From an uncultured bacterium (GTDB lineage: Bacteria; Planctomycetota; UBA1135; GCA-002686595): 64,000 bases of DNA. Below are positions 45,001 through 48,000 of this stretch, in pieces. Position 1 is the stretch's first letter, and every line of letters starts with the position of its first letter. The position numbers were made by a program. Location: assembly GCA_943787795.1 (NCBI GenBank), contig CALSNU010000001.1, forward strand, positions 480,001-544,000, read 5' to 3'.

Positions 45001-48000
45001 TATTCGCCGGCTGGACGACCTGGTCGACCAGCAGCTTGTGTCCTTCACCGAGCAGATGGTCGCGTCGAACATGCCGCGGGAGCTGGAGGAGGTCCAGCGC
45101 CTCAAGACCTACCTGGACTCGGTGAGGTCCGTGCTGACGATGATCCGCCTCTCCCCGAAGGACTTCGAGTTGACCATCCGAGCCGACGTACCGATCGACG
45201 GGGAGTGAGAGCCCGGTGGGCCCTCGGCCCCGGTGTCCGTTCGTCCTTGGCGCTGGCCTGGAACTCATCGTGCCGGCGACGCGTCGAGCGGAGAGGGGCC
45301 GTGAGCGCGTATTCCTCCGGAGGGCGGGTGCGCCCCTCTGCTCCTCTGAGCCCTCTCGTCCTGGCCGGGAACGACTGGCCGCGCGGCGAAGCCGCCCGGA
45401 GCCCGAGCGCTCCCGGGGGGATGTGACCCACACCGTGCTCCGCTCCTTGCGGACTCCGTCGCTGGGGAGGGGCCGGCGTTGACAGGCGCGGCCTCGATCC
45501 CTTCGCCCCGACCCGGTGTTGGATCCCCTGCGTCTTGGATCCCCTGCGTCTTGGATCCACGGCGTCTTGGATCCACTGCGCGGAGGCATACGGCGCGGAG
45601 GCATACGGCGCGGAGGCACACGGCGCGGAGGCACACGGCGCGGAGGCACATCGTGCGGAAGCAAGCCCGGGCCCGTCCGCCGAGCCCGTCCGCTTGGCCC
45701 GTCCGCTGGACCGACCTGCCGCCCCTTTGAGGCACAGGGTCCAAGCAAGAAGGCGCGTGAGGCTTCACCTTGCGACCCCTCTCAAGAGGGGGAAGGTGGT
45801 GCCCGGAACTGGAATCGAACCAGCACGGGTATTATCCCACCAGATCCTTAGTCTGGCGCGTCTACCAATTCCGCCACCCGGGCTCCATCACGCGGCGCCG
45901 TGGCGAATTGCCGCGGCATCCTTCTGCTTGTCAATCCCGGCCAGAGCAGCGCACTGTCCGAGGCTGGGAAGATTAGGGACGAATGCCCCGGTCGGCAACC
46001 GTCAGAACCACTTTTGCGTGTTTGAGGTGAATCGGGGCGCACTAAGATCTTCGCGACCTCGGCCGGCACGTTTCGCTGGAGGGGCGCTCAGAATCCAATC
46101 TACACCCTCTCCTCGACGATGTCCCAACTCCGTGGCCACGCGCTCATCGGTCAATCCGGCGGCCCCACCGCAGTCATCAACCAGAGCCTCGTCGGGCTCG
46201 TAGAGAGCTGCGTTGAGCACCCGGACATCACGGGGGTCTACGGCGCCCTGAACGGGATCCAGGGCATCATCGAGGAGCGCCTGATCGACCTCGGCCGCGA
46301 GTCCCGCGAGGAGCTTGAGCGGGTCGCCATGACGCCTGCTGCGGCCCTCGGCTCCGTCCGCAGGAAGCCGACCGCGGAGGCCTGCCGGCGCGTCCTCGAC
46401 GTGTTCAAGGCCCACGACATCCGGTACTTCTTCTACGTCGGCGGGAACGACTCGGCGGAGACGGCCCACCTTCTCAACGAGGCCGCCCTTGAGATCGGCT
46501 ACGAGGTCCGCCTCTTCCACGTCCCGAAGACCATCGATAACGACCTCGCCGGCTGCGACCACACCCCCGGGTTCGCTTCCGCGGCGCGCTTCGTTGCCCA
46601 GGCATTCATGGGCGATGACCAGGACAACCGAAGCCTGGGCGGGGTGAAGATCAACGTGATCATGGGGCGTCACGCCGGGTGGCTGACTGCTGCGAGCCGG
46701 CTCGCGCGCCGCCACGAGGGAGACGGACCTCACCTGATTTACCTCCCCGAGGGAGTCTTCGATCGGCAGGAGTTCTGCGACCGGGTCGAGGAGATGCTCC
46801 TGAAGCACGGACGCTGCCTGGTGGCCGTCTCCGAGGGCATCCATGACGCCGAGGGCAAGGTCATCGCCAGCGGCACCGAGGTGGACAGCCACGGCAACAT
46901 TCAGCTCTCGGGAACCGGCGCCCTCGGCGACTACCTCTCCGAGCTGGTCAAGGCCAAGGTCTCGGCGGCCAAGCGCGTCAGGGCGGACACGTTCGGCTAC
47001 CTGCAGCGTAGCTTCTTCGGGGTCATCTCCGAGCAGGACGCGCTCGAGGCCCGCGAGGTGGGCCGGGCCGCCGTTCGGGTCGCCACATCGGGCGACTGCC
47101 AGCACGGCTCACTGGCCATCCAGCGCGGGACCAATGAGGGGACGTACGAGCCGCTCTACGTGGTGAACGACCTCTCGGTCGTGGCCGCAGCGACCCGCCA
47201 TGTACCCGAAGAGTTCATCGAAGGTTCAGATGATGTCTCGAGTGCGTTCGTGGAGTGGGCGACGCCGCTGGTCGGCGCGCTCCCCGTGCCCGGGCGCCTC
47301 GCGAGCCACCCGGTCACGCCGAAGACTGGCGCGACTCAGCTCAGCTGAGCTCGCGGGCTTCGTGCCGAATGCGGAGGCGACGGCCTCGCGCATTCGGCAT
47401 ATCATGGGGAGCATGAATCAAGGCAAACTCTCCGTCGGGTGCCTCCTGGCCACGCTCTTCCTGACCACGTTCCTTCTCGCCGGCGCAAGCCTGGGGCAGG
47501 AGCCGGTCGCCAAGTCCGCCCCGGCGGCAGACGCAGCCAAGACGGGGACGCTGACCGGGTCCGTCAAGTTCGAGGGCGAGCTCCCGGAGGTGAAGGAGCT
47601 GGTGGTCTCGGCGAAGTCGGCCAGCGGCTGCTGTCCTCCGGGTGAGGAGGTCGACCGGCAGGATCTCAGCCTTGTGATCGGCGAGGATCGGGGCCTCCAG
47701 GGCGTGCTCGTGACCGTGAAGGTGGACGGCGTGAAGGTGAAGGTCCCTGACAAGCCGTATGAGCTGGATCAGAAGGGCTGTCGCTTCACACCGCACATGC
47801 TCGTCGTGCCGAAGGGGGCGAAGGTGGCCTTCCTGAACTCGGATGAGACGTCCCACAACGTCCACCTGATCACGGTCCTGAACCCCGACCTCAATCAGAC
47901 CGTCCTGGCCGGGAAGCGTCTCGAGCGCACGTACAACGAACCGGAGCGCATCAAGGTCACGTGCGACATGCACACCTGGATGAAGTCCTGGCTCGTCGTC

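Follow-up and report, generated by a model that had tools for sequence, protein, structure and literature searches.

In the genome of a marine planctomycete we identified a tRNA-Leu(AAG) gene that, judging from comparative sequence analysis, probably specifies a working leucine tRNA whose A34 is edited to inosine by TadA, with the CUN codon box being read by this IAG tRNA together with tRNA-Leu(CAG). The gene lies within a 64 000-nt stretch of DNA (the window), which belongs to an assembly of 8 contigs (G000; 4.71 Mb, 69.6 % G+C, 84.9 % complete). We regard inosine as the best reading because the anticodon arm is like that of tRNA-Arg(ACG), fits the published loop consensus YUAMGRA and is accompanied by a single intact TadA, and also because CUC is dominant in highly expressed genes and tRNA-Leu(UAG) has been lost in closed relatives. 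An expansion of I34 from tRNA-Arg to tRNA-Leu had been the central proposal of an earlier survey of this genome; on these grounds it stands as the best-supported reading, whilst the claims of novelty attached to it do not.

The tRNA-Leu(AAG) gene

The gene is located on the minus strand at 45797..45883, and its product is the sole tRNA that ARAGORN detects in the window. It is 87 nt in length, with a long variable arm (UGGGAUAAUACCCG), and terminates in ...GGGC-A-CCA, thus carrying A73 and an encoded CCA; its score against Rfam RF00005 is 53 bits, compared with a gathering score of 29. The anticodon arm (positions 27–43, CCAGA CUAAGGA UCUGG) was read from the sequence at 45841..45857 of the minus strand, and presents A34 in a 7-nt loop, C-U-A-A-G-G-A, with a closing stem. 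The anticodon AAG occupies 45847..45849 on the same strand, by ARAGORN and by sequence, such that A34, the proposed site of deamination, corresponds to T at 45849 of the plus strand. Across 16 sequences from the family (13 AAG and 3 GAG) the 24-pair cloverleaf is conserved, and at 10 of the 24 stem pairs we observed compensatory changes. Given the ARAGORN and Rfam calls, as well as these compensatory changes, tRNA-Leu(AAG) is a real tRNA under selection. A long variable arm and an A73 discriminator are the identity elements for leucyl-tRNA synthetase (LeuRS). The anticodon is not read by this enzyme (PMC11028032). A promoter and terminator scan of the region 45500–46200 returned no sites.

The stretch is present in 14 RNA runs, and position 45849 was inspected in four of 24 listed runs, representing four studies and all stored as contigs. 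The contigs from these marine RNA libraries cover 45740..45948 on the minus strand (X2, 45740–45948; X14, 45741–45940; X1, 45753–45924; X9, 45740–45867 and 45838–45948). They are 172–221 nt in length, or consist of two overlapping pieces, and derive from relatives, with 1–9 differing letters. With flanks of ∼40–65 nt on each side, they resemble either a precursor still awaiting processing or DNA, and are at most a weak hint of a primary transcript, with DNA carry-over also possible. No T>C change at 45849 was seen in the contigs of the four libraries, with position 34 reading as the genomic A, in an assembled form that drops minority variants. Partial matches of high RNA depth at 45834–45878 were set aside, as they continue into unlike sequence and hence represent the Leu tRNAs of other organisms.

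Origin of the anticodon arm

By sequence, tRNA-Leu(AAG) is the orthologue of the tRNA-Leu(GAG) found in sister lineages. In the acceptor, D and T arms it is identical to the tRNA-Leu(GAG) of one such genus (g20), and the two anticodon arms are distinguished by five changes (31 C>A, 32 U>C, 34 G>A, 38 U>A and 39 G>U). The state in the outgroup is GAG, as seen in the other families of the order and in five genera within this family. At all five changed positions the base found in the AAG tRNA is the one present in tRNA-Arg(ACG), for which the arm reads CCUGA CUACGGA UCAGG in 11 of the 12 genomes examined. Locally, position 35 and a single swapped pair, 29:41, are all that distinguish the Leu(AAG) arm from the Arg(ACG) arm; the loops, whose likeness the survey had noted, are the same except at position 35. 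We propose that G34 was replaced by A34 and that the surrounding arm was remodelled (A31:U39, C32 and A38) to a stem-loop resembling that of tRNA-Arg(ACG). A derivation from tRNA-Leu(UAG), which has the same arm shape in G165 and G170, was considered and rejected, as in its acceptor and T arms the AAG tRNA agrees with the GAG rather than the UAG tRNA. Nevertheless, the presence of the A31:U39, C32, A38 arm in the tRNA-Leu(UAG) of these two GAG-bearing relatives means that it is not exclusive to TadA substrates.

Published loop consensus sequences are YUAMGRA for the two-substrate TadA of Streptococcus pyogenes and YUACGAA for Escherichia coli and Klebsiella pneumoniae. The loop CUAAGGA fits the former and misfits the E. 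coli-type consensus at positions 35 and 37, whilst the GAG orthologues carry U38 and would misfit YUAMGRA. Positions 32, 37 and 38 are reported as important for E. coli TadA (PMC11066159, section 4.1).

The TadA homologue

As the survey had described, G000 has one TadA homologue beside tRNA-Arg(ACG): it is encoded on the minus strand at C4:47589-48107, 156 nt from the tRNA gene, which ARAGORN places at C4:48264-48340. The homologue is intact and is the single TadA-like match in G000 at E ≤ 0.001; no A34 deaminase other than TadA is known in bacteria. It contains the HAE and PCxxC motifs (HAE and EPCFMCAGA in alignments). The best matches in the PDB are evolved TadA variants (8e2q, 1.4e-36), with further matches to wild-type TadA from E. 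coli (1z3a, 7e-35) and S. pyogenes (2nx8, 5e-33) and to 2b3j (3e-27). Against NCBIfam NF008113 it scores 138 bits (E 2.5e-40, profile positions 11–152 of 165), where the curated cut-off is 150. When the TadA sequences of 8 genomes with AAG and 8 with GAG were aligned, no column separated the two groups, and at this level we see nothing to suggest that the enzyme was altered along with the AAG state. E. coli TadA failed to edit the tRNA-Leu(AAG) of S. pyogenes in vitro, and thus acceptance of A35 is not automatic. In our model the single TadA would deaminate A34 to inosine in tRNA-Leu(AAG) as well as in tRNA-Arg(ACG).

Leucine tRNAs, codon usage and decoding

From the whole of G000, ARAGORN recovered 45 tRNAs (with 40 Rfam matches), amongst which leucine is represented by aag, cag, caa and taa only, and no tRNA-Leu(GAG) or tRNA-Leu(UAG) was found in this 84.9 % complete assembly. 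The Arg tRNAs are acg, ccg, tct and cct, plus an 88-nt 'tcg' ARAGORN call that is missing from the 40 Rfam matches. Rfam detects nine long-arm tRNAs in each of three closed relatives, namely G001, from the same genus, and G160, with 1 contig apiece, and G040, with 2 contigs; each set of nine comprises Leu aag, cag, caa and taa, four Ser and one Tyr, with neither a GAG nor a UAG tRNA-Leu among them. The survey's report of a tRNA-Leu(AAG) at this locus without GAG or UAG counterparts is thus upheld, with ARAGORN, RF00005 and the whole-genome set in agreement, as is its statement that closed relatives are also without GAG. Most of the family's other genera with tRNA-Leu(AAG) have tRNA-Leu(UAG) beside it; what sets this genus apart is the additional loss of tRNA-Leu(UAG), leaving CUN to be read by AAG and CAG alone.

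In a sample of 1719 long, high-GC3 ORFs of G000, CTC occurs 55,078 times (54.7 % of Leu codons), alongside 36,623 CTG, 4,426 CTT, 885 CTA, 3,546 TTG and 95 TTA. These proportions match the earlier counts and confirm CUC as the most used leucine codon; it is not, however, the commonest codon of the proteome, as had been claimed, but ranks third in this sample (per 1000 codons: GAG 62.0, GCC 57.0 and CTC 55.8). The dominance of CUC persists in ribosomal and elongation factor genes: its share of Leu codons is 56.4 % across 28 translation genes verified by Pfam, and in tuf it accounts for 21 of 26. CUA, although rare, is in use, with 3 occurrences in the 28 translation genes in addition to those in the ORF sample. 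In the model, tRNA-Leu(IAG) would read CUC (I:C), CUU (I:U) and CUA (I:A), and tRNA-Leu(CAG) would read CUG; because IAG would cover CUA, tRNA-Leu(UAG) may have become dispensable, and so been lost in the genus and in at least two others. Inosine at position 34 has been demonstrated in the tRNA-Leu(AAG) of Oenococcus oeni, S. pyogenes and Streptococcus mutans.

Of the competing explanations, the one that fares best, albeit an unlikely one, is that A34 remains unmodified and reads CUU by Watson–Crick pairing and CUC (and CUA) by 'superwobble' or two-out-of-three reading, comparable to Mycoplasma tRNA-Thr(AGU). Consistent with this are the A read at position 34 in the RNA-library contigs, the finding that no TadA change tracks AAG, and the existence of unmodified A34 tRNAs in bacteria, namely those for Thr and Ser in O. 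oeni and that for Thr in Mycoplasma, which reads ACU, ACC and ACG in vitro (PMC11066159). In vivo, however, unmodified A34 reportedly pairs for the most part with U-ending codons, and C-ending codons are said to be readily read only if codon positions 1 and 2 both form G/C pairs, whereas the middle base of CUN is U. Here, the C-ending codon accounts for 55 % of leucine and ∼5.6 % of codons overall, and prevails in tuf as well. Moreover, the arm has been remodelled into the form of a TadA substrate, and with A34 unmodified the loss of tRNA-Leu(UAG) would leave CUA with only an A:A pair. Less probable again than unmodified A34 is that a factor other than TadA modifies A34, or that editing is partial or conditional and the decoding pool mixed. 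Whilst the score of the TadA homologue, slightly below the NCBIfam equivalog cut-off, could be taken to favour this, the genome yields only that one TadA-like match, and both A34 tRNAs of S. pyogenes are reported to be fully edited in all growth phases. Finally, it is highly improbable that a tRNA-Leu(GAG) or tRNA-Leu(UAG) is present but was missed through an assembly gap or in detection, with AAG then not the sole decoder, for although G000 is incomplete, genus member G010 has an additional TAG pattern match, and our pattern searches detect only GGTAGAC-type D arms, such that GAG tRNAs with a GGCAGAC D arm escaped in five genera, neither tRNA is found by whole-genome ARAGORN on G000 or amongst the exactly nine long-arm tRNAs of three closed or two-contig relatives, one of them of the same genus.

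Distribution of tRNA-Leu(AAG)

With the pattern for GGTAGAC-type D arms, the AAG arm was found in 16 of the 18 genomes of the genus (G000 counted), in keeping with the wide occurrence that the survey had noted. No GAG tRNA was detected in these 18 genomes, the one G34 pattern match, in G001, not being a tRNA by ARAGORN. Across the family the arm is present in 67 of 174 genomes and 29 of 68 genera; in the other families of the order there were 0 matches in 162, and among 386 genomes from the rest of the phylum one match is clear (G500, where it lies on a short contig) and two are dubious. Further G34 pattern matches, of the CTGAGA/CTGAGG type and one TTGAGG (L002, L016, L018 and L020), were rejected as tRNAs by ARAGORN; similar pattern matches occur in G076, G155, G232, G270 and G260:C15.

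Beyond the phylum, we scanned one genome per species; judged by record name, those with the identical AAG arm include Verrucomicrobiota (Akkermansia), Actinomarina, Micavibrio, Synergistaceae and Lactobacillaceae. The suggestion that this lineage adds a third bacterial phylum to those with I34 beyond tRNA-Arg must therefore be abandoned, as the same arm is encoded in records that bear the names of many other phyla. Instead, the planctomycete tRNA-Leu(AAG) is a new example of a switch known from streptococci and present in many bacterial groups. The literature accessible to us assigns tRNA-Leu(AAG) almost wholly to Bacilli, and in it we found no publication linking Planctomycetes, Verrucomicrobia or Akkermansia to A34, tRNA-Leu(AAG) or inosine, although the supplements and figures of surveys may list such phyla; our scan, with the gut bacterium Akkermansia amongst its matches, suggests that this literature understates the spread of tRNA-Leu(AAG).

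More tentatively, and at somewhat under even chances, we suggest that I34 on tRNA-Leu was reached repeatedly across bacteria (Planctomycetota, Verrucomicrobiota including Akkermansia, Actinomarina, Micavibrio, Synergistota and others), each time by recasting the GAG arm so that it copies that of tRNA-Arg(ACG), with TadA unchanged, and that the planctomycete genus went beyond any described bacterium by dropping tRNA-Leu(UAG), such that a second box is read by I34 plus C34 in the manner of Arg and of eukaryotes, with ∼5.6 % of codons depending on I:C. Were inosine confirmed, the lineage would provide a natural instance of a bacterium in which the main leucine codon, and the decoding of CUA as a whole, depend on wobble inosine. 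Such a state would have arisen without visible change in TadA, suggesting that a tRNA can adapt to the enzyme first, which bears on how I34 widened from one tRNA to eight toward eukaryotes. For annotation and codon-adaptation models, AAG would best be treated as IAG in such genomes.

Comparison with known systems

In the Lactobacillales (O. oeni, S. pyogenes and S. mutans), as in the planctomycete, AAG stands in for GAG in a YUAAGGA-type loop, and tRNA-Leu(AAG) exists alongside tRNA-Arg(ACG) and a single TadA. Inosine is demonstrated in the former, whereas we infer it in the latter. The Lactobacillales keep tRNA-Leu(UAG), as do most genera of the planctomycete family, and the reading of CUA by IAG is described as not required in them because UAG is present; in contrast, G000, G001, G040 and G160 are without it. 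The Lactobacillales genomes are also A+T-rich with UUA as the top Leu codon, whilst G000 has 70 % G+C and uses CUC for 55 % of leucine. Furthermore, position 35 alone distinguishes the Arg loop from the Leu loop in the planctomycete, as against positions 35 and 37 in S. pyogenes.

The bacterial conversion of tRNA-Arg(ACG) to ICG by TadA involves the same enzyme as proposed here, acting on an anticodon arm that shares 14 of 17 bases with the planctomycete tRNA-Leu(AAG), and follows the same logic, in which I34 and C34 tRNAs cover a four-codon box (locally acg plus ccg for Arg); the leucine tRNA differs in having A rather than C at position 35 and a long-arm Leu body. Eukaryotes likewise read CUN by IAG and CAG, with no GAG tRNA. 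Their ADAT2/ADAT3, however, is reported to be a heterodimer that has lenient sequence needs and uses the whole tRNA, whereas the planctomycete has a single TadA-type gene and an arm that mimics tRNA-Arg(ACG). Mycoplasma tRNA-Thr(AGU) is another bacterial tRNA that has A34 and serves a four-codon box, but it comes from a reduced genome whose tRNA set is minimal, and its A34 stays unmodified, whilst these planctomycetes have genomes of 4.7–7.7 Mb, a full tRNA set and TadA.

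Leucine decoding by tRNA-Leu(AAG)

The sole tRNA of the window, tRNA-Leu(AAG), is encoded on the minus strand at window positions 45797-45883 (ARAGORN) and reaches 53 bits with the Rfam tRNA model, for which the gathering score is 29. The gene is 87 nt long, with A73, an encoded CCA and a long variable arm; its anticodon arm is CCAGA CUAAGGA UCUGG, with A34 corresponding to the plus-strand T at 45849. Two plus-strand ORFs (43154-45208 and 46119-47348) flank the gene. Downstream of it, reading along the strand of the tRNA, about four copies of a short, ~15-nt direct repeat (GGCACACGGCGCGGA-like) occupy the intergenic stretch 45600-45663.

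Applied to the whole source genome (eight contigs, 4.71 Mb, 69.6 % G+C, completeness 84.9 %), ARAGORN called 45 tRNAs, compared with 40 matches to the Rfam model. Leucine is represented by the anticodons aag, cag, caa and taa, and arginine by acg, ccg, tct and cct. Four ARAGORN calls had no Rfam match, and false positives or unusual tRNA-like elements could account for them: Glu ttc (96 nt, C4:172943-173038), Trp cca (81 nt, C4:271648-271728), Ser gga (81 nt, C2:313091-313171) and Arg tcg (88 nt, C6:459772-459859), the last of which looks spurious.

The survey's finding was that tRNA-Leu(AAG) is the only reader of CUU, CUC and CUA, and it allowed for a GAG tRNA hidden in an assembly gap. We turned to three closed or near-closed relatives, namely G001 (same genus, one 7.72-Mb contig), G040 (6.9 Mb, two contigs) and G160 (4.95 Mb, one contig), in which the Rfam model detects 43, 41 and 41 tRNAs, respectively. 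Each has nine long-arm tRNAs, all of which were fetched as sequence: Leu aag, cag, caa and taa, Ser gct, tga, gga and cga, and Tyr. As neither a GAG nor a UAG leucine tRNA is among them, just as in the source genome, the sole-decoder claim is borne out by complete genomes from three genera, and the underlying observation is sound.

Codon usage was determined from 1719 long, high-GC3 ORFs of the source genome. CTC accounts for 54.7 % of leucine codons, followed by CTG (36.4 %), CTT (4.4 %), TTG (3.5 %), CTA (0.9 %) and TTA (0.1 %), which matches the survey's counts in proportion and bears out CUC as the most used leucine codon. It is not the commonest codon overall, as had been proposed, but ranks third (55.8 per 1000) behind GAG and GCC. 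For highly expressed genes we used 28 of 30 str/S10/spc/alpha candidates that were verified with Pfam (ribosomal proteins, EF-Tu, EF-G, IF-1 and RpoA). Here CTC stands at 56.4 %, CTG at 32.1 %, CTT at 8.8 % and CTA at 0.8 % (three codons), and in tuf 21 of 26 leucine codons are CTC; thus, the codon dependent on AAG is not shunned where translation speed matters most. The arginine codons read by ICG are likewise unavoided, with CGC and CGT together rising from 53 % to 71 % in the 28 translation genes.

Distribution and ancestry in the family

Using a pattern that runs from the end of the D-arm through the anticodon loop and leaves position 34 free, we found the AAG arm in 16 of 18 genomes of the genus, with a CAG arm in most, a TAG match in one genome only (G010) and, as the survey had described for the genus, no GAG tRNA. 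A single G34 match in G001 proved not to be a tRNA and was rejected. In the family, the pattern detects the AAG arm in 67 of 174 genomes and 29 of 68 genera, most of the AAG-bearing genera having a UAG tRNA alongside. Genuine GAG tRNAs that share this D arm are present in G049 and G050 (both genus g20) and in G104. In five genera without any match the D arm is GGCAGAC, and GAG and CAG tRNAs are present, with UAG in two genomes; the figure of 29 genera is therefore only what the pattern detects, and the remainder includes GAG-bearing lineages.

With the same pattern, A34 was found in none of 162 genomes from the order's nine remaining families, G34 matches being present in 10. The 386 genomes from the rest of the phylum yielded one clear AAG arm and two doubtful matches. 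The clear case (G500:C228:274-294, in another family) has an arm identical to that of the source genome and is found close to one end of a short contig; contamination during binning, rather than a second origin, could account for it. On this distribution, GAG is the ancestral state, with AAG having arisen within the family.

Anticodon arm and TadA

In its acceptor, D and T arms the AAG tRNA equals tRNA-Leu(GAG) of g20, and the anticodon arms differ by five changes (31 C>A, 32 U>C, 34 G>A, 38 U>A and 39 G>U), every one of which yields the base of tRNA-Arg(ACG). The latter has the arm CCUGA CUACGGA UCAGG in 11 of 12 genomes examined, both AAG- and GAG-bearing, and differs from the leucine arm only at position 35 and in one swapped base pair. 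Among 13 aligned AAG sequences, pair 28:42 varies (C:G, A:U, U:A or G:C) and the loop is constant as [C/U]UAAGGA. TadA substrates are not the only tRNAs with this arm shape, as tRNA-Leu(UAG) of two genomes (G165 and G170) shares it. A tRNA-Leu(GAG) of genus g30 (L182, genome G088) has the arm CCAGA AUGAGGU UCUGG, in which the A31:U39 pair is already there together with A32, G34 and U38; it could represent an intermediate on the route from GAG to AAG, or else a side branch.

E. coli TadA is reported to depend on positions 32, 37 and 38 (PMC11066159) and, in vitro, to edit only tRNA-Arg(ACG), leaving S. pyogenes tRNA-Leu(AAG) unedited; the editing consensus given for S. pyogenes, whose TadA edits both tRNAs, is broader, YUAMGRA instead of YUACGAA (PMC11472039). 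The AAG loop fits YUAMGRA, and the GAG orthologue's loop, UUGAGGU, would be a misfit even given A34. I34 in a tRNA-Leu(AAG) is described as first demonstrated in O. oeni, which also retains unmodified A34 tRNAs (PMC8072771); in vivo, unmodified A34 is stated to read mainly U-ending codons (PMC11066159).

The single TadA homologue reported by the survey near tRNA-Arg(ACG) was recovered as the sole match at E ≤ 0.001 in the source genome (173 aa, C4:47589-48107). It carries HAE and PCxxC motifs, and its closest solved structures are evolved E. coli TadA variants (8e2q, 1.4e-36), followed by wild-type E. coli TadA (1z3a, 7e-35), S. pyogenes TadA (2nx8, 5e-33) and S. aureus TadA (2b3j, 3e-27); with NCBIfam NF008113 it scores 138 bits, under the cut-off of 150. 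The gene order at C4:47263-48340, tRNA-Arg(ACG)-tadA-tRNA-Ser(CGA)-tRNA-Ser(GGA), places the enzyme gene immediately downstream of its own substrate tRNA. The tRNA-Arg-tadA-tRNA-Ser order is conserved across the order (16 loci, L021-L026 and L052-L061), with tRNA-Arg(ACG) beside tadA in 12 and at least one of the two tRNA-Ser genes in all 16. No alignment column separates the TadA proteins of eight AAG-bearing from those of eight GAG-bearing genomes.

Very probably, tRNA-Leu(AAG) undergoes the known TadA-dependent A34-to-I34 editing, predicted here for a new lineage. The further loss of tRNA-Leu(UAG), of which we found no description in the literature searched, makes CUU, CUC and CUA in a high-G+C genome depend on tRNA-Leu(AAG) alone. 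In Lactobacillales, AAG and GAG are reported as mutually exclusive with UAG retained, CUA reading by the former being termed not required (PMC13249217), and a 2026 preprint states that ANN tRNAs replaced GNN isoacceptors and no others (10.64898/2026.05.15.725136).

Occurrence in other bacteria

Bacterial tRNA-Leu(AAG) genes are described as almost all from Bacilli, the others being from Mycoplasma and Prochlorococcus (PMC13249217). We scanned one genome per bacterial or archaeal species for the arm GGTAGACRCGCNNGAYTAAGGATCNNG; at least 120 stretches matched, and ARAGORN called tRNA-Leu(aag) in 79 of the 80 listed (L062-L141). Groups follow record titles; lineages were checked for four of the names. 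Verrucomicrobiota-type names make up 51 of the 80 (Akkermansia, including A. muciniphila, Akkermansiaceae, Luteolibacter, Rubritalea, Roseibacillus, Opitutales, Coraliomargarita and others), followed by Ca. Actinomarina (six), Lactobacillaceae (five), Micavibrio (four), Synergistaceae, Synergistales or Dethiosulfovibrio (four), Planctomycet* (three) and Alphaproteobacteria (two), with one each for Proteobacteria, Lujinxingiaceae, Seleniivibrio, Ca. Dormibacteria and an unnamed bacterium. In five such genomes the free-34 pattern matched AAG accompanied by UAG and/or CAG, and GAG was not among the matches. The survey had suggested that the lineage would add a third phylum with I34 beyond tRNA-Arg; with the arm under many phylum names among the matches listed, it is one lineage of many. 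The arm type ..GA-YUAAGGA-UC.. recurs under these names with lineage-specific acceptor stems, so that each lineage has its own tRNA, not a shared mobile gene.

Contigs from RNA libraries

Fourteen RNA runs contain at least 80 % of the sampled words from a 161-nt stretch around tRNA-Leu(AAG), and four of them, from four studies, were compared in contig form over window positions 45700-45980. In each library the tRNA and ~40-65 nt on either side are covered by one contig (172-221 nt) or by two pieces that overlap. The 1-9 letters that differ from the window all lie in the flanks, which indicates that the contigs stem from relatives. T>C at 45849 occurs in none of the four, contigs being a form that suppresses minority variants. 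They resemble either a transcript that has yet to be processed or DNA carry-over. A simple scan of 45500-46200 revealed no sigma-70-like promoter and no intrinsic terminator around the gene. Within 45740-45948, the contigs of the four studies end no more than ~10-25 nt apart at either side of the tRNA, as would be expected from a primary transcript of ~210 nt.
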